Below are positions 3,899 through 23,961 of a stretch of DNA of 24,000 bases, in pieces. The number at the start of each line of letters is the position of its first letter. Positions within the stretch are counted from its first letter, which is position 1. This DNA is from an uncultured Halomicronema sp. (GTDB lineage Bacteria > Cyanobacteriota > Cyanobacteriia > Phormidesmidales > Phormidesmidaceae), in contig CALCCA010000087.1 in assembly GCA_937899725.1 (NCBI GenBank), forward strand, positions 61,979-85,978, read 5' to 3'. Both the position numbers and the translations under genes were made by a program. Below the pieces are notes generated by a model. That model saw nothing but the letters and a program-made list of their open reading frames with translations. It was not told the origin of the DNA and searched no databases.

Positions 3899-5347
3899 TT
3901 AGCGCAGGCTGGGGTCGATCGGTGGCATCGACAGCACCGGCTCGTTCTCGCGATCGAGGCCGGTTTCAAAGCCAGCAGCTGTGGCGCGGGCGCGACCCGC
4001 GTGCCAGAGGTGCCCGACGAGGAAAAAGAAGGCAAAGATAAAGTGAGCCGTGGCCAACCAAGTCCGGGGTGAAACAAAGTTAAAGGCATTTGTTTCAGTG
4101 GCTAGCCCCGCGACGGAGTTAATGGAACCCAGCGGCGCATGGGTCATGTACTCGGCAGCGCGGCGCAGCTGCCAGGGCTGAATATCGTGCTTGATTTTCT
4201 CGAGGTCGAGGCCGTTGGTGCCCCGGAGCGGCTCTAGCCAAGGGGCGCGAGCATCCCAAAAGCGCATCGTTTCACCGCCAAAGATGATTTCGCCGGTGGG
4301 CGATCGCTGCAGATATTTACCAAGCCCGGTCGGCCCCTGAGCTGAGGCCACATCAGCTCCCAACCCTTGATCGCGGGCTAAAAACACTAAAGATTGCGCC
4401 TGCGAAGCCTCAGGAATCGTGGGGCCATAGAACACGCTGGGATAAGCCGTATTGTTAAACCAAATAAAGGCGGTAGCAATAAAAGCTTGACCAGCGACGT
4501 TACCCAAACTCTGAGAGAGATAGGTCTCGCCCGTCCAGGGAAAGAGGTTATAGGTCCAGCGGAGGGGCGGCACGAGAATGTGCCAGATGCCACCAATGAC
4601 TAGCAGGCTGCCAATCCAAATGTGACCGCCAATGACATCCTCTAAGTTGTTGACGCTGACAATCCAACCGCTACCGCCGGTCGGCAGGCGCAGCAGATAC
4701 CCAAAAATGACGCGGGGGTCGAGAGTGGGGCTCGTAATCAGCCGCACGTCGCCGCCGCCCGGTGCCCAGGGGTCATACAGACCGCCCCAAAACATCGCTT
4801 TGCCGACAAACAGCAGGGCAAAGATCCCCAGCATGAGAATATGAAAGCCGAGAATTTGGGCCACTTTCGCCCGATCAGTCCAGTCAAACTCGAAAAAGCC
4901 TGAGAGCTTTTCGGGGCCTTGAATGGCGTGATAAATACCCCCCGCACCCAACACGGCAGAGCCAATCAGGTGAGCGACGCCAATGGCGAAAAAGGGAAAA
5001 ATGTCAGTGACGGCTCCCCCTTGACCGACCCCAAAGCCCAGGGTCGCAATGTGGGGCATGAGAATGCAGCCTTGCTCATACATCGGCTGCGACAGGTTGT
5101 AGTGGGAGACCTCAAACAGGAGCATGCCGCCGGCCCAAAAGGCAATCAGGCCCGCATGGGCGATATGCGCTCCGAGAAATCGTCCCGTCAACTCAGAAGT
5201 AATAAATCGGGCATTACCGGCCCACCAGGCAAAACCGCTGGACTCTTCGTCGTAGCCAGCGCTAGCGGGGGCAAAGATCGAGCCTTCCTCTACCAGGGGC
5301 TGACTCGACGTGGCTACGCTCGGTATCGTTTCGATGGGTATTTCCAT
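3899..5347 (-). CDS. psbC2: Photosystem II CP43 chlorophyll-binding protein paralog (PsbC)
   Basis: 482 aa. Contains [52 protein letters not shown] and C-terminal [11 protein letters not shown], all CP43 hallmarks. GGAGG lies 9 nt upstream of the ATG. Confidence 0.95.
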
Positions 5348-7449: not shown

Positions 7450-9822
7450 TTAGGCGGGATTGGTCGCAGTTTCTGGCTCCGGCGTGGTCGCAGCCGTCTC
7501 GCCGTTGTTGACAGCGGTTGGCGGGTCGGGGGTGACGGCGGCGGGTGGGGGCGGTGGCGGCGCTTGAACGGCCACCGCAGTGGTTGCAGCGACCGGCTCT
7601 GGGCTGGCTGCTGCCGACCCGGCACTGTGGTCGCGCCCGGTGTGGTGATTCGCAGTGTGACCCTGAGCCATTGCAGTTTTGGCGTAGGTTTGCATCCATT
7701 CCCCCGCGATCGCTGGATTTTCTCGAGGTTTGAACCAGCCGCTAGGCCCTTGGGGCGATCGCTGAGCATAGCCCTGCGGCGTCAGGTAGCGCTCATAGGG
7801 CACGATCATTTCACCAAAGACCGCCAGGTATTCGGCACTGTCGATCAGCTCATCGACCAAGGCATAAAAGCCTTGGCGGGCACAGAGGTCGTAGTACCGG
7901 GCCATTTCTCGGCGATCGCGGGTCGGGCGCCCCAGCAAGCGCCGGTGAATATATTCGATCGCCTTGGTGATGTAGAGCGTCTCCCAAGCCAGCTGGCGGA
8001 AGGGGCGCGATTTGGCCAACTGCCGCACAAATTCGCGCAGGGTGATATTGCCTGCCTTTAGTTGGGTCTCAGCCGTTTGCTGCCGCTGGCCAGCCCACAC
8101 CGCTCGCCCAAACACCTGGCGATAGGTCGCCTGAATCACCGCCTCAGGGGAGTGGTGGGTCAGACTAAAGCTGGTTTGGCGGGGTGGCTCACCGCCCGCC
8201 TTGCCGTTCAGGCCATTCGGGGAAACGACCGCTTCCCACTGCAGCCGCTGCTGTTCCATCGCACCGGGGGCGCGGCCAAGGTGGGCGGCATGGCGTTCGA
8301 CCAAGCCGTTGCCCACGCCGTTGCTGATCAAAATCCGGCGGCTGTCTTCGCTAAAGTGAGCGGGCTGCGGCTGCGGATCGCGCGTTTCCTGCGGGAAGAT
8401 GGCTCCAAACTGAATCTCCAGCGGATCGTTGCCCGCCCCGTAGGGATGCTGATTGGGCAGCGGTTGCTGATAGCCGCCAAAGGTCGTGACAAACTGCGGC
8501 ACCTTGCGCACCGGCGCACTGTATTTCAACAGATCGAGTTGGGGACCCCAGTTGCGGCATTCCTGCGCCTCTCGCCCCAAACCGCGCAGATAGGGCACCG
8601 TTTCTTCGCCAAAGTAGTCGGCATATTCTGGCGAGTCGATAAAGGCATCCACCAAGGCCGACAACCCGTGATCAGAGATGACGTCAAAGTACGTCTGAAA
8701 CTCTTCTAGGCAGCTCAGCCCGCGACCGAGAAAGTGACGGCAGGCCAGCTCAATGCTGCGGCTGATGCTGTAGGGCTCATAGAAAAGTTGCCGATACAGG
8801 CGCGATTTACCCAACTGCCGAATGAACTCTTTCATCGTCCCCAGGTCGCTTTTGACCTGAGAGACGGGCGCTGCCAGCAGGGTGCCGTGGGTCTGGATGA
8901 CATCGCGCTCAAACACTTGGCGGCAGGCCGCTCGCACCACATCATCTTTTTCGATGTCGGGCAAATCGGCTTTCATCACCCAGTGGGGCTGCAGACTGGC
9001 ACTATCGCGGTAGCTTTGGGGTAAGGGCAACCCCGCGTGATGTTTAGAAATCCCCAGTCGCAACTGCGGATTGGGTTTCTCGACCTCATAGTCATCAATC
9101 AAGACATCAAAGTAGCGCCCCACTAGCGCGGCGGCTTGTCCCTTTTTGGGAAAATAGGTCAGCGCTTTCCACTGCATTTCTCGCAGGGCGACGATGGTGG
9201 CCAGGGTGACATCTTCTGGAATCACGCCCCGCAGGCCGCGCGTATTGACGCTAATGATGCTGGTATCCCCCGCCACGATCGCATAGGTGATGTAGCGCAA
9301 AAACCAGCTCAGGTCGCGCAGCGATCGCTTCATCCGCACCGGGCCGTAGCGGCCAATATCGATCGTGCGAAAGCGGCTGGGTGCCGCAGGTCTACCGCCT
9401 GCAATCAGCCCTTGAAACCATTCCAGCAGCGGATTGGACTCGTCGATTAGCCGCGGGCGATCGCGATTTTGGGTTCGCGCTTTTTGCTGCCGGGTCACCG
9501 CCGAGAGATAGTCTTCAGCAATGAAGTAATCAGAGCCCGGTAGTCCCAACGACTCCTCGGGCGGCTCTAGATAGGCCATCGAGTTGCCGCCCACAAAGAT
9601 GCGGTTGGCCCCCGCTGCCACGATGCGCTCAGCGTGCTGGGTCAGGGTTTGGGCAATCGCGAGTCGCTTCATCCCAGCGCCAAAAAAAGCTAAGAGTTCT
9701 TGGCCTTCACCGCGGCTTAAATAGCGATCGCGCTGCATCGCTTCAGTGATGACGGCGGTTGGCACCGTGTGATACTGCTGGGGATGAATCACTGGACTGC
9801 CCCCATTAATCCGATCAGTCAT
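7450..9822 (-). CDS. apcE2: Phycobilisome core-membrane linker paralog (ApcE) with two REP linker domains and a Cys-free bilin domain
   Basis: ORF 7450..9906 trimmed to the ATG at 9822 (MTDRINGGSPVIHPQQYHTVP, the ApcE-like N-terminus). The product is 790 aa. The phycobiliprotein-like domain contains RYGPVRMKRSLRDLSWFLRYITYAIVAGD. Two linker repeats are present: ...ACRQVFERD...EYADYFGEETVPYLR and ...ATYRQVFGRA...EYLAVFGEMIVPYERY. Confidence 0.9.
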   Translation of the reverse strand: MTDRINGGSPVIHPQQYHTVPTAVITEAMQRDRYLSRGEGQELLAFFGAGMKRLAIAQTLTQHAERIVAAGANRIFVGGNSMAYLEPPEESLGLPGSDYFIAEDYLSAVTRQQKARTQNRDRPRLIDESNPLLEWFQGLIAGGRPAAPSRFRTIDIGRYGPVRMKRSLRDLSWFLRYITYAIVAGDTSIISVNTRGLRGVIPEDVTLATIVALREMQWKALTYFPKKGQAAALVGRYFDVLIDDYEVEKPNPQLRLGISKHHAGLPLPQSYRDSASLQPHWVMKADLPDIEKDDVVRAACRQVFERDVIQTHGTLLAAPVSQVKSDLGTMKEFIRQLGKSRLYRQLFYEPYSISRSIELACRHFLGRGLSCLEEFQTYFDVISDHGLSALVDAFIDSPEYADYFGEETVPYLRGLGREAQECRNWGPQLDLLKYSAPVRKVPQFVTTFGGYQQPLPNQHPYGAGNDPLEIQFGAIFPQETRDPQPQPAHFSEDSRRILISNGVGNGLVERHAAHLGRAPGAMEQQRLQWEAVVSPNGLNGKAGGEPPRQTSFSLTHHSPEAVIQATYRQVFGRAVWAGQRQQTAETQLKAGNITLREFVRQLAKSRPFRQLAWETLYITKAIEYIHRRLLGRPTRDRREMARYYDLCARQGFYALVDELIDSAEYLAVFGEMIVPYERYLTPQGYAQRSPQGPSGWFKPRENPAIAGEWMQTYAKTAMAQGHTANHHTGRDHSAGSAAASPEPVAATTAVAVQAPPPPPPAAVTPDPPTAVNNGETAATTPEPETATNPA

Positions 9823-9934
9823 GGTGTGTTCTAAACTCCGAATTAAAAATGTTGCTGAGAGAAACCAGATTTCTGATGAGGCCCGTTGAGTCGCGGGCTT
9901 GATCAAAAATCCTGACGGTGAACCCTGACTCGCC

Positions 9935-10414
9935 TTAGCGTCTGAGCCCTTCCATCAAGTAGTCAAAATAGGGCGCGACTTCTGCCGCATCATCAATGCT
10001 CAACAGGCTGAGGGCCACTTCTTTGAGACAGCCCATGCATTCCGCCACATTACTGAGAGGAATTTCGAGAGAGGTGTACATCTCCTTGACCCCGCGCACC
10101 CCACTGGCCTGCAGCGGGTCAATGTCGCCCACCACGACGGCATAGGAAATCAGGCGCAGAAACCAGCCCTGATCACGCAGGCACGAAGCCTGAAACCGGG
10201 GGTTATCGCTATTGCTGGGAGTCAGGGGACAGCGTTGCCAAAATCGCTGACTGCCTTGTTCCACAATCAGTTGGACGTTGCTAGTCAACACGGAGGCAAT
10301 GCGGAGGCGCTGTTGTCCGGCGTCAAAGAAATGACTGATCGCCTCCAGTTCGCCCCGACTGAGATATCGCGCTTCGCGATCGGCGTTGGCGATCGCTTGG
10401 GTAATAATGCTCAT
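9935..10414 (-). CDS. apcD2: Allophycocyanin alpha-type subunit paralog (ApcD family, far-red type)
   Basis: 159 aa. Contains MSIITQAIANADREARYLSRGELEAI..., RCPLTPSNSD...ASCLRDQGWFLRLISYAVVVGD and a C-terminal APYFDYL. The symbol is assigned from gene order. Confidence 0.82.
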   Translation of the reverse strand: MSIITQAIANADREARYLSRGELEAISHFFDAGQQRLRIASVLTSNVQLIVEQGSQRFWQRCPLTPSNSDNPRFQASCLRDQGWFLRLISYAVVVGDIDPLQASGVRGVKEMYTSLEIPLSNVAECMGCLKEVALSLLSIDDAAEVAPYFDYLMEGLRR

Positions 10415-10772
10415 GGCAAATCCTATTGTTATCAGGTTTTGATTGAGAGGTATCGCCGTTGCCAGGGCCGTTAAGACCAGCCGGCAAGTCGCTGGAATGA
10501 GGACTCAGCATCAGGATGATGCGAGGGTCGGAGCCACTAGGGCGTAAGCGCTGATGAGGCTCAGGCGAAGGCCAATACCGGTCAGAGAGGGAGAGCTCAC
10601 AGACCGGCATCAACCATCAAAGTCAGGCGGGGGGCGCGATCGCTTTAAGAGGGAGAGCTCTCAAACCAACCGGGGTGATCGGCCTGCGCCAACAGCAATG
10701 AGGTGACGAAGCCCAGGACTTCATGAACGCCTCACTTTGATCACCGGCCCCCTCGCGAGACTGTTTGCCGAG

Positions 10773-11489: not shown

Positions 11490-11966
11490 CTACGACAAAG
11501 AATGAATAATCAAATCGAAGTAGGGCGCGACCTCTTGGGCATCGTCGTCACTCATGACGGCCATCGCTTCCTCTTTGAGGCAGCGCATGCATTCGGCAAT
11601 ATTGCGAATGGGAATTTCTAAGTTGTTGTACATTTCCTTAATGCCGACGGTGCCGATTTCTTCTAGGGGCCGCTCACTGCCCGCCAGAATGGAATAAGCA
11701 ATCAGGCGCACATACCAGCCTTGATCACGCTGGCAGGAATTAGTCTTGCGATCGACGCCACTATTACTCGGGGTATTAGGACAACGCTCCCAAAACTTTT
11801 TGCTGCCGTTTTGCACGATGCGCTGTTCATTTTCGGCGAGCGCTTTAGCAATCCGAATCCGCTGTTCGCCGGTTTTTGCGAAGTCTTGAAAAATTCTCAG
11901 CTCTTTAGGGGCAGGATAACGGGCCTCACTATCGGCACTCAGAATCAGTTCCGTGACTAAGCTCAT
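11490..11966 (-). CDS. apcA2: Allophycocyanin alpha-type subunit paralog (far-red type), first gene of the minus-strand operon
   Basis: 158 aa with AGGAG upstream. Contains MSLVTELILSADSEARYPAPKEL..., RCPNTPSNSG...NSCQRDQGWYVRLIAYSILAG and APYFDLI. The symbol is by position upstream of apcB2; I cannot exclude an ApcD5-type identity without phylogeny. Confidence 0.75.
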   Translation of the reverse strand: MSLVTELILSADSEARYPAPKELRIFQDFAKTGEQRIRIAKALAENEQRIVQNGSKKFWERCPNTPSNSGVDRKTNSCQRDQGWYVRLIAYSILAGSERPLEEIGTVGIKEMYNNLEIPIRNIAECMRCLKEEAMAVMSDDDAQEVAPYFDLIIHSLS

Positions 11967-12891
11967 GACTAGATTTCTCCTAATTTAACGCTGCATGAAA
12001 GATCCATATCAAGCGATGGCTTGAATTATCTTGCTCCTAGAATTTGATATCTTTTCTTGAGTGAATTTTTTTGAAAATTTCATTTGAGAAATTTTAGTCA
12101 TCAAATTGTTATTCCAAGCCAGCCAACTTCTGATGAGAGGGTGCTTTGAGGGTTTGATACTTCTTGCTGAAGACGGCTTCAACATCAGCCAAATCTATTT
12201 CACAACCGCCGCTCAGAGAGTTGACGACTGATTCAAGACTGGACTCATAGAAGATGAACTTCACTCAAAGGGTCATCAAGAAAATTCAGCAGAGATCACC
12301 AGCATCTCGACTCAAAGTTCTTGACGTCTCTTCATTGATGAATACAGATAAGATTCCACTTAATCTAGAATCAGCTGCCTTAGCCTCTTTGAAAAGACTT
12401 CATCTTTTACTAGGTTTGAAAGGAGAATAAGCAAAAAAAATGAAGAACTTATGAACAGATTAAAATCGCTTAAAGAAACTTTTCGATAGGCCGCAGCGAA
12501 GGGGGCCTTCACCAGTTCTTTAGATCTTTCTGGTTTGATGCAAGTCACGCACTCGTTGGTATGGACCGAATTTGAGGCGTTTAAGTGATCGGTGTCAAGG
12601 CCATGCTCCTGGCTGTTTTATGTAAATTCAGCCAGCTTGTGAATGCCTAAATTGATGCCGAGAAAGAATATTCGGCGGGCAGTTTTTGGGTGACTGTGGC
12701 CGGATTAATCTGTTGGCTCTCCCTCAATTTATGGGCAACTCAGCCGTTAATCATTGAGGCCTTTGCCCGGCAAAGGCTGAGCTCAGGTTTTCAGAGCTTG
12801 ACTGCCTGGTTTTCACCCCTAATCCAGCAGGGGCAATCGGCTGCTGCTGAACTGCATGCCAATTACATGACATCTGAATTTGAGTAAAGAG

Positions 12892-13032
12892 ATGAAGAAC
12901 CGCGCTTTGATCCTCGTCTTGATTATTTTCTGTTTGAGTCTGTGGGCTGTCCGGATGAATAGTCTACGGATGGAAAGCACGTCACTCAGATATGAGGCGA
13001 TCAAACAGGAGATTAGCCTTGTTCAAATCTAG
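12892..13032 (+). CDS. Possible 46-aa membrane-anchored peptide (very tentative)
   Basis: Product is MKNRALILVLIIFCLSLWAVRMNSLRMESTSLRYEAIKQEISLVQI, an N-terminal TM helix followed by an amphipathic tail. It starts 5 nt after the stop of the GTG-started ORF 12690..12887 and is followed by the 13095-13152 terminator-like hairpin. I recognise no homology. Confidence 0.2.
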   Translation: MKNRALILVLIIFCLSLWAVRMNSLRMESTSLRYEAIKQEISLVQI

Positions 13033-13094: not shown

Positions 13095-13152
13095 AGTCCT
13101 CTCTTACCACCCAAGAGAGGATTTTTGGGTGGTAAGAGAGGACTCAGTTTTT
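13095..13152 (+). terminator. Perfect 20-bp stem-loop followed by a T5 run, about 55 nt upstream of the psbO2 start
   Basis: AGTCCTCTCTTACCACCCAA (13095-13114) pairs with TTGGGTGGTAAGAGAGGACT (13125-13144) around a 10-nt loop, then cagTTTTT follows. Confidence 0.5.
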
Positions 13153-13208: not shown

Positions 13209-14057
13209 ATGAATTTGCATAAAGACATGAAATACCGTTCGTTAATGGCCCTCTTTTTAGCGACTTTTTTGGGCTTCCTGACGGCTTGTAGCAGCAGTCC
13301 CACCGCCAACAACGGCTCCTTGAGTTATGACGACATTCGAGGCAGTGGGCTGGCCAACAACTGTCCGGAGCTGTCGGAAGCAAGCCTTGATTCGATCGCG
13401 ATCGCCACCGACCAGTCTTATCAGCTCAAAGAACTGTGTTTAGAACCCAAAACCTTTTTGGTGAAGCGATCGCCCCGCATCAAACGGCAGGATAGTCAGT
13501 TTGAACTCACCAAACCCCTAACCCGAGAAAGTTTCACCCTTGATCAGGTGAGTGGCTCGCTCAAGGCTGCGCCCAACGGCATGCTGACCTTTACTGAGCA
13601 AGGGGGATTTGATTTTCAACCGGTGACGGTGCAGCTCCCCGATGGCGAACGGGTGCCGCTGTTATTCACCATTAAGGGATTAGTCGCGCAAAATCAAGAT
13701 TCTTCTGGTCGTCTCGGCCCCTCTAGTCGGTTGGCTGGTACATTTGATGTGCCACCTTATCGCACTTCGAGCTTTATTGACCCCAAAGGGCGCGGTCTGG
13801 CGATGGGCTACGATGTGGCCGCCGGTTTGCCGGTGAGTGCTGATAGCGAAGAATTTGCTCGCCCGAATACCAAGGTCTTTGATATTGGCCAAGGGTCCAT
13901 TTCTCTGCAGGTCAACCGAGTCAACCGAGCAACGGGCGAAATTGCCGGTTTGTTTGAGAGCGCCCAACCTTCGGACACTGACTTTGGCGCGAAAGAAGCC
14001 ATGGGCGTCAAAATCAAAGGACGCTTTTATGGCCGGATTGAACCGGAGACCATTTAG
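13209..14057 (+). CDS. psbO2: Photosystem II manganese-stabilising protein paralog (PsbO)
   Basis: Colinear with PsbO: LSYDDIRGSGLANNCPEL, ELCLEPKTFLVK, FDFQPVTVQLPDGERVPLLFTIKGLVA, FDVPPYRTSSFIDPKGRGLAMGYD, TGEIAGLFES and IKGRFYGRIEP. The start is uncertain. The ATG at 13209 lies 11 nt after AGGAG, and the ATG at 13227 (MKYRSLMALF...) matches known PsbO N-termini. The track start at 13185 is less likely. Confidence 0.9.
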   Translation: MNLHKDMKYRSLMALFLATFLGFLTACSSSPTANNGSLSYDDIRGSGLANNCPELSEASLDSIAIATDQSYQLKELCLEPKTFLVKRSPRIKRQDSQFELTKPLTRESFTLDQVSGSLKAAPNGMLTFTEQGGFDFQPVTVQLPDGERVPLLFTIKGLVAQNQDSSGRLGPSSRLAGTFDVPPYRTSSFIDPKGRGLAMGYDVAAGLPVSADSEEFARPNTKVFDIGQGSISLQVNRVNRATGEIAGLFESAQPSDTDFGAKEAMGVKIKGRFYGRIEPETI

Positions 14058-14093
14058 AGACTGTCATCAACGACGGGTCACCTAAACCGCGTG

Positions 14094-14219
14094 TAGATTG
14101 AGAACTGGAATTTGGCCATGCGGGAAAACCTCACCGCCTGCAGCACCTCTCCTTGTGAAGGAGAGGTTTATCCAGAACTCTGGTTCCTCTCCTTGAGAAG
14201 GAGAGGCTAGGTGAGGTTC
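14094..14219 (+). repeat. MITE-like nested-palindrome element, copy A (downstream of psbO2)
   Basis: tagattgagaactggaatttggccatgcgg...AACCTCACCgcctgcagcaCCTCTCCTTgtgAAGGAGAGG...CCTCTCCTTgagAAGGAGAGGctaGGTGAGGTT. The sequence matches the reverse complement of 23653-23801 almost base for base, apart from one internal indel. Confidence 0.8.
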
Positions 14220-14408
14220 TACAGCCCTTTGAACTACCGCAGCCGATCGGCAACCCCTTTTCCTAATCAGCTGTATAGCAACTTGCGCGCAAGAAATCGC
14301 CTCACTCAGATAAGGGGCAAGGTAGAACCTGATGGTTTGCCTGCGGCATGCCTTGATTCAGCCCCATCAAATTTTTCAGTATCTATTGCCAACAGAAGGA
14401 GAACGACC

Positions 14409-14543
14409 ATGACCAATCTCAACAATCAGCCCGAGGTAGCCTATCCGATTTTCACCATTCGCTGGCTAGCGGTACATACACTGGCGATTCCTACGGTGTT
14501 CTTTTTGGGGGCGATCGCCGCGATGCAGTTCATTCAACGCTAA
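14409..14543 (+). CDS. psbF2: Cytochrome b559 beta subunit paralog (PsbF), with no adjacent psbE
   Basis: ORF 14211..14543 trimmed to the ATG at 14409, 8 nt after AGGAG. The 44-aa product [44 protein letters not shown] is near-identical to canonical PsbF, including the heme-ligand His. Confidence 0.9.
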
Positions 14544-14565
14544 GAGAAAGACGCCTTTGATGGTC

Positions 14566-14586
14566 GGGTTGAGCATTGCTCAACCC
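14566..14586 (+). other. 9-bp stem-loop 23 nt downstream of the psbF2 stop
   Basis: GGGTTGAGC (14566-14574), loop att, GCTCAACCC (14578-14586). Confidence 0.4.
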
Positions 14587-14647
14587 TCATCGAACATCTT
14601 CTGCCTTGAGAAGACTGTTTAAACGCAGAGCGCTAATGCTACAGACA

Positions 14648-14690
14648 CCAAGCGCCCCCAGGATTTCTCAGGAATCCTGGGGGCGCTTGG
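14648..14690. terminator. Perfect 18-bp hairpin between convergent psbF2 and psbV2 (candidate bidirectional terminator)
   Basis: CCAAGCGCCCCCAGGATT (14648-14665) pairs with AATCCTGGGGGCGCTTGG (14673-14690) around a 7-nt loop. It lies 17 nt beyond the psbV2 stop. There is no U-tract on either side. Confidence 0.5.
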
Positions 14691-14706
14691 TGAGTCAATC
14701 ATCGAA

Positions 14707-15219
14707 TTATCGTTTGGGTTTTCCCCCAGCCCACTGGTCACCGACGATTCTCGGCTGCACTAAAATATGGCCCGCGATCGCGGTCAAATCAGATTGAGTC
14801 AGGTCACGCATTTTAGGAAAGAGATCCGTCCGCTGCGTCGATGGATGACTTTCTAAAATAGGCTGCAACCCATCGTAGGTTGTGGGGTTTTCCAAATAAT
14901 TAACGATGCTTTCTATCGTATTGCGAGGCGGGGTCGCAACCGCCAATGTTTCAGACGATAAATCAACGCTGGGATTCGTTTTTGTGACGCCGTCTAAATG
15001 ACATTGAGCACAGCTACCATTAAATTTACGCTGCCCGGTCAGCAGTTGTTTGGTCGTCAGGGTCATCTGATCGCCTGATGCATTTAAGGGTAGCGTTCGA
15101 GTCGCTTTATCAATTTCAGCCGCGTTAGCATTAGGCACCCAGGCGATTGCCGAAATCAACAATGCACAGGTTGGCAAAGCAACATATCTAAGTAATTTTC
15201 TTTTGAGATTAAAAAACAT
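14707..15219 (-). CDS. psbV2: Cytochrome c-550 (PsbV) paralog
   Basis: 170 aa. The signal peptide ends ...VPNANA/AE. The heme motif is CAQCH. Also present are LDGVTKTNPSVDL, LAVATPPRN, NPTTYDG, the distal-ligand His region ILESHPS, LFPKMRDLTQSDLTAIAGHIL and a GDQWAGGK tail, all colinear with PsbV. Confidence 0.88.
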   Translation of the reverse strand: MFFNLKRKLLRYVALPTCALLISAIAWVPNANAAEIDKATRTLPLNASGDQMTLTTKQLLTGQRKFNGSCAQCHLDGVTKTNPSVDLSSETLAVATPPRNTIESIVNYLENPTTYDGLQPILESHPSTQRTDLFPKMRDLTQSDLTAIAGHILVQPRIVGDQWAGGKPKR

Positions 15220-16080
15220 TAATTTCTAGCTCCAAAAATTTAGCTAATATCTTAAAAGTATCACAGCTTTTATTTGAGATTCATTAAAATAGTATTTCTT
15301 GAAAAGAATCTAGAAGAAATCGTTTTAGCAAATCAATAACTGGATTGTTGGATTTTTTGATTGACTATTTTCTGTTCAAATAAAAGGCTGCCATGGTCGA
15401 TGTTGTTCAGATTCTCCTTTGGCTGACCTGTCAAAGTCTCGCCAGCTTAATGACGGCATGACGGTATGAAGTGGACTGGTAATGAGGGCAGCTGCGTTTT
15501 TGAGCTGACCGACTGGCAGGAAGTCTCCTCGGTATAAGGACTCTCCAAAAAACCGATCAAGGATCTGCTTGAGCGCGATCGCCCGCTGCTGCAATCAGGT
15601 CTGCAGGCCTCTCAAAACCCCTCTAAATCAAAGGTCTATGGTCTGAGCGCTTGACCACAGGCAGCGAGATTTTGAGGGCTGAATTGCGCCGGTAAACGTG
15701 AGGTCATGGACGACTTAGCCCGGTGTGAAGCATGAGAGAAAGGGGTCGAGCTGCCGAGTGAATTGCTTGAAACGCTCATCGGTCAATGACCCTGGCTGTA
15801 ACTTTTTCTGAAGTGCTGATTCATCTTCACTAGTTTTTTATTTTTTTTGCTTACCTTGCTTTACTAATCGCGATCAGTCGATTCACCAATTCATTCTCTG
15901 CCTTCCCGATGATCTTGAGTAGCTTCAAGAAAAGTATGGCCGTCCTCTCCTCATAGAGGTTGGTCTAGGGAACTTACCTGCTGACTTTAAAGCGGGTGAG
16001 TTGAGAATATAAAACTTGCAGTTTTCTGTTTGAAGTGGCCCAAACTAGTCACGGCAAACAGCTCTGTTTTACTGCAAATT

Positions 16081-16208: not shown

Positions 16209-17462
16209 ATGACACAGTTTGGTAGAGCGATCGCCCTCGATCGTCCTGACCAAATCGCAGGCGTCTCACCCTCTAGGAAACCCATAAGTGACGTGACTAT
16301 TGCACCTCCCATTCATTCTGACGATGCCAAAATTGCGCGCCCCATTAATGTGTGGGAGCGCTTTTGCCGCTGGGTTACCAGCACTGACAATCGCATTTAT
16401 GTCGGCTGGTTTGGCATCTTGATGATTCCGACCTTATCCACTGCGGCCATCGTCTTTTTGCTGGCCTTTGTGGCGGCCCCCCCGGTGGATATTGACGGCA
16501 CTGGCGGGCTCATCGCGGGGTCGTTATTCAGCGGCAATAATCTGATTACCGCTGCCGTCGTGCCCACTTCACCCGCTGTGGGGCTGCACTTTTATCCCCT
16601 TTGGGAAGCCGCTTCGATGCAGGAGTGGCTGGTCAATGGCGGCCCCTATCAACTCATCGTGCTGCACTTCTTGATTGGCATCATTGCCTATCAAGATCGG
16701 GAATGGGAACTCAGTTACCGACTGGGAATGCGGCCCTGGGTGTCGCTCGCCTTTACCGCCCCAGTGGCGGCCGCCGTGTCGGTGTTGCTGATTTACCCCA
16801 TTGGCCAAGGCGGCTTTGCTGCGGGCATGCCCTTGGGCATTTCGGGCACGTTTACGTTCATGCTGCAGTTCCAGGCTGATCACAACATCCTGGCTAATCC
16901 GTTTCACCAAATCGGCGTGATTGGGGTCTTTGGCGGGTCGTTTCTCTGTGCCGTGCATGGCTCATTGGTTACGTCGGCGCTGATTCGCCATCGCCCTACC
17001 CCGGCGGCGGCCCAGCGCCGCTGGCATGACAACCCCCACGGGGCCTATAGCCTCAGGCATCTGCAAATCAATCAACAAAAATTACTCTGGCGCGGGGCGA
17101 GTTTTAAGTCAGCGCGATCGCTGCATTTTTTCCTGGCGGCCTTTCCGGTGGCGGGCATCTGGTCGGCGGCGATGGGCATTGATATGGCCGCCTTCGGGTT
17201 TGATCAGTTTGCGAGTCAAGCGGCCGGGGGTGGCCTCCAAAAGGCGGTGGTGCCGACTTGGGCCGACATTGTGACCCAGGCCAATCTGGGCATGCATGTG
17301 CTGTCAGAGACTGAGCAGTCCACCTTTCCCATCTTTTTGGGCGAAGCCGCCACGCCTGAGGCTGCCCGTCTGGGGCTGGCGGTAGACCCCGATGCCCCGG
17401 CGCGGGCGCTCACGGGCCCACAGCTGTCCGGCGCGATCGCCCCAGCCATTCCCACTGTCTGA
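16209..17462 (+). CDS. chlF: Super-rogue D1 paralog with chlorophyll f synthase hallmarks (ChlF / PsbA4)
   Basis: D1 fold is clear ([58 protein letters not shown]). The OEC ligand positions are changed: D170->A (GQGGFAAG), E189->D (QADHN), H332->S, D342->F, A344->G ([20 protein letters not shown]). [10 protein letters not shown] carries Gln-Asp where D1 has Met127-Gly128. The QB/DE-loop is unrecognisable. Start is set at ATG 16209 (AGGAG 8 nt upstream), not the GTG at 16035. Confidence 0.88.
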
Positions 17463-23323: not shown

Positions 23324-23557
23324 ATGGCTGATATGACTCAACTGACCGGCGCCTATGCTGCGTCATGGTTGCCCTGGCTGATGATTCCGCTAATTTTTTA
23401 TATTCTGCCCTTCCCTGTATTTGCGATCGTTTTTCTTTGGATTGAACGCGAAGGCAACGGTGAGGCGGCGATGGGACAAGATGCGACTAGCTCATCATCC
23501 GGATTGTTAGCGGCCACACCCGGTGACATGGGCGCCGACCCCACCTCATCTGCCTAA
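23324..23557 (+). CDS. psaI2: Photosystem I subunit VIII paralog (PsaI) with a long C-terminal extension
   Basis: AAGGAG lies 7 nt upstream. GAYAASWLPWLMIPLIFYILPFPVFAIVFLWIEREG matches the PsaI core (..YAAS.LPW...P.......LF.YIE). The ORF is 77 aa, whereas I remember PsaI as about 38-40 aa. Confidence 0.8.
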   Translation: MADMTQLTGAYAASWLPWLMIPLIFYILPFPVFAIVFLWIEREGNGEAAMGQDATSSSSGLLAATPGDMGADPTSSA

Positions 23558-23652: not shown

Positions 23653-23801
23653 CACCTCACCTGACCTCTCCTGAGTAAGGAGAGGCACCGGAGCGTTCTT
23701 AAACCTCTCCTGACTGTTGGCGAAGCCTGCCCGGAGGGCTTAGGAGAGGTGCCGCAGGCGGTGAGGTTCGACCGCATGTCAAAATTCCAGTTCTCAATCT
23801 A
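23653..23801 (-). repeat. MITE-like nested-palindrome element, copy B (inverted, between psaI2 and psaF2)
   Basis: The reverse complement reads tagattgagaactggaattttgacatgcggtcgAACCTCACCgcctgcggcaCCTCTCCT...AGGAGAGGtttaagaac...CCTCTCCTTactcAGGAGAGGtcaGGTGAGGTg. It is colinear with 14094-14219, with a larger first loop of about 30 nt. Confidence 0.8.
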
Positions 23802-23961
23802 GATGAGCTTTAGCCGTTCAACTCAAAACTCAAAATTCAGAACTCAATTAATTCTGATTCCTTAACGTTCAGGTTTTTGAGTTGCTCATTCAATTCCGCC
23901 TTCCGCCTGGAAACTTTAGAACGCCCTAAATCCTTTTTAATTAGTAACAGGAGATCAGAGA

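Follow-up and report, generated by a model that had tools for sequence, protein, structure and literature searches.

Gene content of the island

The 24-kb stretch of DNA from an uncultured Halomicronema sp. analysed here, referred to below as the window, is a far-red light photoacclimation (FaRLiP) cluster. The subject of this analysis is an island of three photosystem II (PSII) genes, psbO, psbF, and psbV, whose open reading frames (ORFs) are all intact and lie between the two arms of the cluster. Gene identity was assigned from Pfam matches to the ORF translations. The minus-strand arm comprises psbH2 (1659-1880), psbB2, psbC2, psbD3, an apc gene, apcE2, and three more apc genes that extend to 11966. 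The plus-strand arm comprises a chlF-type gene, psaA2, psaB2, psaL2, and a psaI-like ORF. The chlF-type gene, in an ORF that opens at 16035 (+) and has its probable start near 16209, encodes a divergent PsbA-like protein with the YQDREWELS stretch typical of chlF. A reading of the sequence alone had placed psbO, psbF, and psbV between an apc/psb arm and a chlF/psa arm, and the intact ORFs and strong Pfam matches confirm this placement.

psbO2 (13209-14057, +) encodes the far-red-cluster paralog of the Mn-stabilising protein, with a length of 282 amino acids (aa). It matches Pfam PF01716 (MSP) with an E-value of 2.6e-96 and a score of 322 bits, over model positions 2-242 of 242, and is therefore full length. 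The start at 13209 is plausible, as TAGGAG lies 11 nucleotides (nt) upstream. The ATG at 13227 is the start that is conserved in most homologues, and gives a protein of 276 aa. The protein has a signal peptide ending in LTAC, and both cysteines of the Cys pair (GLANNCP ... ELCLEP) are kept. The last apc gene of the minus-strand arm (11490-11966, -) directly adjoins psbO in the opposite orientation.

psbF2 (14409-14543, +) encodes a paralog of the cytochrome b559 beta subunit, and AGGAG is present 8 nt 5' of the gene. The match to PF00283 has an E-value of 2e-16 and scores 59.6 bits against a cut-off of 30. The protein comprises 44 aa with a single transmembrane helix, and the heme-ligand His in RWLAVH is kept in all 23 island PsbFs. 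There is no psbE partner within the island.

psbV2 (14707-15219, -) encodes a cytochrome c550 paralog of 170 aa, which matches PF14495 with an E-value of 6.4e-51. The gene is convergent with psbF and divergent from chlF. Its heme-binding CAQCH occupies residues 70-74, and the distal ligand is His125, in ESHPS; both are kept in all 26 island PsbVs.

Related loci

The window PsbO is 99% identical to that of L001, a 6.7-kb contig of an uncultured Halomicronema metagenome-assembled genome (MAG), and 88% identical to that of L002, from a Leptolyngbyaceae MAG. The intergenic DNA of the window and L001 is only about 90% identical, so the window comes from a close but distinct population.

Comparison of the window PsbO with one genome per species gave 29 loci, which were annotated with the window's own proteins. 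psbO is divergent from a FaRLiP apc operon in 26 of them, that is, in all loci with at least 62% PsbO identity except L026. The loci L027 and L028, at 51% PsbO identity, are not FaRLiP-linked. Four further sequences (P0044, P0053, P0065, and P0068), taken from separate parts of the PsbO clade described below, are all FaRLiP-linked, and one of these four is an Elainellaceae variant with rfp genes after psbO. The psbO of Synechococcus sp. PCC 7335 (L030; Synechococcus 7335 below) is linked as well. The sequence-only reading had proposed a survey of FaRLiP clusters for linked psbO, psbF, and psbV. Linkage is found in 31/31 clade members with enough flanking sequence (26 survey loci plus L030 and L032-L035), psbF is present in 22/30 loci, and psbV in 26/27. 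In 18 loci psbV faces chlF, as in the window; in 8 it stands at the edge of the cluster and has the same orientation as psbO. No psbF remnant was found in seven psbO-psbV gaps searched among the eight loci without psbF.

Two loci depart from the common pattern. L026 (MAG P01_A01_bin.84, a 4.2-kb contig) has a PsbO of the linked clade with no window cluster genes in the 3.4 kb upstream, and is the sole clade member without visible FaRLiP linkage. The island psbO of L021 (MAG J06638_28, 8747-10756) is interrupted: an inserted piece of about 1 kb, coding for a transposase-like protein, follows residue 55 or so. The gene has recently become a pseudogene, and the rest of the cluster is intact.

Paralogy and selection

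In a neighbour-joining tree of PsbO, an 80-member FaRLiP-linked clade that includes the window is separated from 53 unlinked sequences, and eight positions distinguish the two groups. Those clade members that have enough flank all lie in FaRLiP clusters, and the clade spans two orders. The LTAC lipobox of PsbO was considered as a far-red-specific lipid anchor and rejected, as it occurs in 52/53 unlinked and 71/80 linked PsbOs.

Standard PsbVs were collected with the non-island PsbV of Synechococcus 7335 (PDB 8EQM chain V) as the query. In a set of 144 PsbV sequences, the 26 from islands make up a clade of their own. A second, standard PsbV is encoded on other contigs in five island-bearing genomes, P01_A01_bin.123, LEGE 07310, CS-180, P01_C01_bin.70, and P01_G01_bin.38. 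Island and standard PsbVs within one genome share 50-59% identity, and the island PsbVs of other genomes are 66-72% identical to the window PsbV. The heme-binding CxxCH and distal His comprise four residues that are invariant across the 26 island and 118 standard PsbVs. The Thermosynechococcus-type PsbV2 is a c550-like cytochrome in which the heme is His/Cys-ligated, with Cys as the sixth ligand. The island PsbV differs from this description in that the distal His is kept in 26/26 sequences, and the two proteins therefore share the name 'PsbV2' only by coincidence.

With one signature position in PsbV and none in PsbF, neither protein offers grounds for naming far-red-specific functional residues. 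The ratio of nonsynonymous to synonymous substitution rates (dN/dS) between the window and L002 is 0.11 for psbO, 0.15 for psbF, and 0.09 for psbV, the psbV dS being saturated. The apc gene and psaA give 0.03 and 0.05. The island genes are therefore under purifying selection that is more relaxed than that on the core genes. By the trees, and for PsbO also by its eight signature residues, the island PsbO and PsbV are distinct in sequence from the standard (white-light) paralogs, and PsbF, at 44 aa, is nearly canonical.

Promoter motifs

Upstream of chlF, 13 type-A loci share a motif in register. It consists of CTGTAACTTTTyCT, about 12 nt, TCTTCATTAGTTyTyCATTTTT, and then a -10-like box. The window copy at 15794-15859 (+) has CTGTAACTTTTTCT, about 12 nt, TCTTCACTAGTTTTTTATTTT, and the -10-like box, and scores 76 bits. 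It lies in the spacer that psbV and chlF share, and points away from psbV. A position weight matrix (PWM) was built from the 13 chlF motifs. A second long FaRLiP motif, at 12422-12487 (-), faces the apc-psbD-psbC-psbB-psbH operon; its 3' region scores 33.9 bits with the PWM, against a null maximum of 12.6. A short motif facing psbO, at 12504-12541 (+) with the core CTTCACCAGTTCTTTA at 12507-12522, was found by footprinting of the apc-psbO spacers.

The window contains the core YTTCAYNRGTTYTYYA at exactly three places, 12441-12456 (-), 12507-12522 (+), and 15825-15840 (+), against a mean of 0.11 in shuffled sequences. Of 27 loci, all have the apc-directed core and 25 the psbO-directed one. In 18 of the 25 the two cores stand back-to-back at a distance of 49-52 nt, which is 50 nt in the window. 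The apc- and psbO-facing motifs are two halves of a divergent regulatory module. The psbO-facing half is a putative far-red-responsive promoter element for psbO-psbF. Only L022 and L023 are without the psbO-facing core. One is from Nodosilinea sp. P-1105 and the other is a contig nearly identical to it; L022, a piece of a cyanobacterial FaRLiP cluster, was assigned to a Planctomycetaceae MAG, probably through a binning error.

The region upstream of psbV (15220-15790, -) contains a block of another kind, TGTGATACTTT at 15255-15265 (-), which lies 46 nt upstream of the psbV start and is a possible extended -10-type promoter rather than a FaRLiP motif. A TGTGATAYTTT-like block (at most two mismatches) is present in 9/14 type-A loci, mostly about 45-57 nt before the psbV start. 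This block suggests a separate promoter. From the placement of these elements, psbO-psbF would belong to the motif-controlled regulon and psbV would be controlled separately.

Leader of psbO and intergenic elements

The distance from the psbO-facing motif to psbO is about 700 nt in the window. It is 470-750 nt in the window, L001, L002, L004, and L008, and 105-145 nt otherwise. The long distance in the window is due to extra DNA that contains a mini-ORF and a hairpin. The mini-ORF (12892-13032, +) lies between the psbO-facing motif and psbO, and encodes 46 aa (MKNRALILVLIIFCLSLWAVRMNSLRMESTSLRYEAIKQEISLVQI). Copies of 45-50 aa are found in L001 (5290-5430), L002 (9728-9880), L004 (7924-8067), and L008 (9656-9793). 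The mini-ORF is a diverged duplicate of the first 38 or so codons of psbO, comprising the signal peptide and SLSYDDI, followed by a conserved new tail, EIS(L/F)(V/I)Q(I/T). It aligns with the PsbO N-terminus without gaps from Met1, with a z-score of 14.4 for L008 and of 3.3-5.4 for the others. The window and L001 copies are identical at 139/141 nt, and their flanks at 92% and 86%. A profile search of 5.8 billion proteins matched only the L002 copy, and the mini-ORF has no Pfam match. The interrupted psbO of L021 was considered as an intermediate in the birth of the mini-ORF and rejected, as that gene is merely split by the transposase-bearing insertion.

It is conceivable, but rather unlikely, that in the sub-lineage that includes the window the mini-ORF arose by duplication of the psbO 5' end, is held by purifying selection, and acts as a new upstream element of psbO2. 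Its product would then be either a novel small membrane protein belonging to far-red PSII, or a leader peptide by which translation or membrane targeting is coupled to read-through into psbO2. The same tentative proposal holds, as a separate point, that psbV2 would be independent of the RfpB-type motif.

The hairpin of the leader (13096-13143, +), found in a terminator scan, has a 20-base-pair stem followed by a T-run (CAGTTTTTG) and is terminator-like. The distance from it to the downstream psbO is 65 nt. L001 has a shorter version, and L002, L004, and L008 have none.

A repeat resembling a miniature inverted-repeat transposable element (MITE) occupies 14082-14217 between psbO and psbF, and contains two CCTCTCCTT-loop-AAGGAGAGG hairpins. 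An inverted copy is present at 23654-23813, downstream of the psaI-like ORF. Comparison of the spacer with the window by blastn gives 86% identity over 72 nt and 79% over 61 nt for this repeat. Its insertion expanded the psbO-psbF spacer to 351 nt, compared with 30-55 nt in most loci. An nblA paralog, as found in the Synechococcus 7335 operon, was looked for between psbO, psbF, and psbV, and the 351-nt psbO-psbF spacer has no such ORF.

Between the convergent psbF and psbV lies a perfect-stem hairpin, AAGCGCCCCCAGGATT...AATCCTGGGGGCGCTT (14646-14692), which was recognised from self-complementary blastn matches and has no T-run. Its position makes it a likely bidirectional transcript end, with terminator function a prediction from the stem. 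A second small hairpin (14566-14586) is located near the same point of convergence.

Comparison with published far-red clusters

The island is already known: extra psbO and psbV genes were reported by Chen et al. 2019, and the arrangement of psbO2, psbF2, and psbV2 by Antonaru et al. 2024. Antonaru et al. (bioRxiv 10.1101/2024.05.15.594131, Table S8) class the three as accessory FaRLiP genes. By their figures, all Nodosilineales and 16% of group V have psbO2, 87% of the clusters with psbO2 have psbV2, and 70% of the clusters with psbV have psbF2. A short motif upstream of psbO is also described. The locus counts given above agree with these frequencies. The window resembles the group VI (Nodosilineales) clusters in nearly every respect. 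psbO lies upstream of the FaRLiP apc genes in divergent orientation; next comes psbF, on the same strand as psbO, and then psbV, which is upstream of chlF and divergent from it. Also shared are the order of chlF and the psa genes, the short psbO motif, and the product sizes of about 275, 45, and 170-185 aa. Nothing essential differs; the window has a distant psbO motif (about 700 nt instead of 105-145 nt) and the MITE-like element.

Halomicronema hongdechloris: Chen et al. 2019 (PMC6416890) report extra psbO and psbV genes in the cluster of this species, and both proteins rise in far-red light. The genome has two copies each of psbO and psbV, and the cluster PsbO is among the 20 most abundant proteins. 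The cluster (XM38_010770-010970, with psbO as XM38_010880) also belongs to the Nodosilineales, and has psbO between apc and chlF. Its PsbO (P0067) is in the same tree clade as the window PsbO, but the two are only 58% identical. In contrast to the window, psbF is unmentioned in PMC6416890, and L034, the closest sampled relative of P0067, is without psbF.

Synechococcus 7335: The psbO-psbF-nblA-psbV operon of this strain (L030 10001-11812, DS989904.1) lies directly beside and divergent from the apc-psbD-C-B-H arm. Gisriel et al. 2021/2022 (PMC8689208, PMC9843442) treat the operon as outside the FaRLiP cluster, and name its products PsbO1, PsbF2, and PsbV. The strain also has PsbO2, PsbV1, and PsbF1 encoded elsewhere. 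Chain O of the far-red PSII structure PDB 8EQM is 100% identical to the island PsbO of Synechococcus 7335, and chain F of 7SA3 and 8EQM is 100% identical to its island PsbF. The strain shares with the window the three orthologous genes adjoining the FaRLiP apc-psbD-C-B-H arm. It differs in that psbV has the orientation of psbO and stands at the edge of the cluster, and in having an nblA paralog between psbF and psbV; the window has no nblA.

Core FaRLiP paralogs: psbA3, psbB2, psbC2, psbD3, and psbH2 follow the same logic as the island genes, in that each is a second, far-red-dedicated PSII copy with a shared motif. The core proteins bind or contact chlorophyll f/d, and their genes are universal in FaRLiP clusters. 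In contrast, PsbO, PsbV, and PsbF bind no chlorophyll, and their genes are confined to group VI and a portion of group V and have been repeatedly lost.

Interpretation

Most probably, psbO2-psbF2-psbV2 form the accessory far-red set of a FaRLiP cluster of group VI (Nodosilineales type). The sequence-only reading had suggested that far-red remodelling in this organism extends to the lumenal cap and cytochrome b559. This claim is supported by the linked PsbO clade, the exclusive PsbV clade, and the psbO-facing motif. Further support comes from the identities of chain O in 8EQM and chain F in 7SA3 and 8EQM, from the rise of PsbO and PsbV in H. hongdechloris (PMC6416890), and from the published list of accessory genes (bioRxiv 10.1101/2024.05.15.594131).

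In the proposed mechanism, far-red light would act through the RfpA/RfpC/RfpB cascade to activate the conserved T-rich motif that faces apc, psbO, and chlF. The psbO-facing motif would drive a transcript with a long leader (mini-ORF and hairpin), psbO2, the MITE-like spacer, and psbF2, and this transcript would end at the hairpins shared with the convergent psbV2. psbV2 would be expressed from its own promoter of a different type. PsbO2 would be exported to the lumen and would cap the Mn4CaO5 cluster on a far-red PSII composed of PsbA3, PsbB2, PsbC2, PsbD3, and PsbH2. PsbF2 would form cytochrome b559 with the single PsbE, and PsbV2 could supply cytochrome c550. Far-red induction in the window organism, co-transcription, and binding of RfpB to the motif are predicted steps of this scheme.

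Several observations weigh against the assignment of the island to far-red PSII. The island is evolutionarily dispensable: most FaRLiP lineages lack it (bioRxiv 10.1101/2024.05.15.594131), 8/30 loci have no psbF, and in L021 the insertion disrupts psbO. PsbF2 is almost canonical and has no clear far-red signature. In the window, the terminator-like hairpin stands between the motif and psbO, and motif-driven transcription may therefore reach psbO inefficiently. The FaRLiP motif core was found at most 400 nt upstream of psbV in 0/23 loci. Chain V of 8EQM is the non-island PsbV paralog of Synechococcus 7335. This paralog is also the more abundant PsbV in the far-red PSII of the strain, and both psbF genes of Synechococcus 7335 are described as not FaRLiP-modulated (PMC8689208, PMC9843442). 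According to the chain identities in 8EQM and 7SA3, the far-red PSII of Synechococcus 7335 therefore has the island-type PsbO and PsbF, and mainly the standard PsbV.

Two other explanations account for parts of these observations. The island genes would be, improbably, the main constitutive psbO, psbF, and psbV of the lineage, located beside the FaRLiP genes and serving both white-light and far-red PSII. The naming of the island copies as PsbO1 and PsbF2 in the Synechococcus 7335 papers, as not cluster-encoded or not FaRLiP-modulated, fits this explanation, as do the psbV without a FaRLiP motif and the near-canonical PsbF2. No second psbO was retrieved from the island-bearing genomes by way of cluster-member names and contig records. 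However, a constitutive role is at odds with H. hongdechloris, where far-red light raises the levels of the cluster PsbO and PsbV and two copies of each are present (PMC6416890), and with Synechococcus 7335, which has PsbO2, PsbV1, and PsbF1 elsewhere. It also does not fit the second, standard PsbV of five island-bearing genomes, the retention of the psbO-facing FaRLiP motif in 25/27 loci, or a PsbO clade that occurs only in FaRLiP clusters of two orders.

Decay is the other explanation, in which the island would be an ancestral relic with weak or no expression that contributes little to far-red PSII. The absence of the island from most FaRLiP lineages would be expected of a relic, and so would the eight loci without psbF, the seven searched gaps without a remnant of it, and the transposase-bearing insertion in the L021 psbO. 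The MITE-like element and the extra DNA with its terminator-like hairpin, inserted around the window psbO, point the same way, and the dN/dS of the island genes is two to four times that of the apc and psaA genes. Against this, none of the three ORFs is disrupted, each cofactor ligand is kept, the ribosome-binding sites are good, and a dN/dS of 0.09-0.15 represents clear purifying selection. Orthologous PsbO and PsbF are physically present in the far-red PSII of Synechococcus 7335, and the cluster PsbO of H. hongdechloris ranks among the 20 most abundant proteins (PMC6416890). Decay is thus very improbable, and an accessory far-red set remains the best explanation of the island.

Other features of the cluster

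At the far end of the minus-strand arm, a 48-aa ORF (1460-1606, -) lies 3' of psbH2, and its position and size fit the published psbH2'. A DUF1257 gene (1028-1411, -) comes next, and such a gene is also found at this end of the cluster in L005, L006, and L017. On the other arm, the psaI-like ORF after psaL2 (23324-23557, +) has a C-terminal extension of about 35 aa. The sole Rfam match in the window is to IsrR, at 4696-4882 (+) with 116.9 bits, antisense to psbC2. It was rejected as an RNA gene, the most likely cause of the match being psbC/isiA sequence homology.

Significance

Two details of the locus are possibly new. One is the psbO-derived mini-ORF in the psbO2 leader of one sub-lineage. 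The other is the lack of an upstream FaRLiP motif at psbV2, whose regulation seems to differ from that of psbO2 and psbF2. The structure papers place the PsbO and PsbF genes of Synechococcus 7335 outside the cluster, though they adjoin the FaRLiP apc arm. As the far-red PSII of this strain holds the cluster-adjacent PsbO and PsbF, the existing structures can be mined for far-red-specific contacts. Some far-red-acclimating cyanobacteria swap the donor-side cap (PsbO, and possibly PsbV) and the cytochrome b559 beta subunit together with the chlorophyll-binding PSII core. This exchange, itself already published, bears on how water oxidation is kept going with lower-energy photons.

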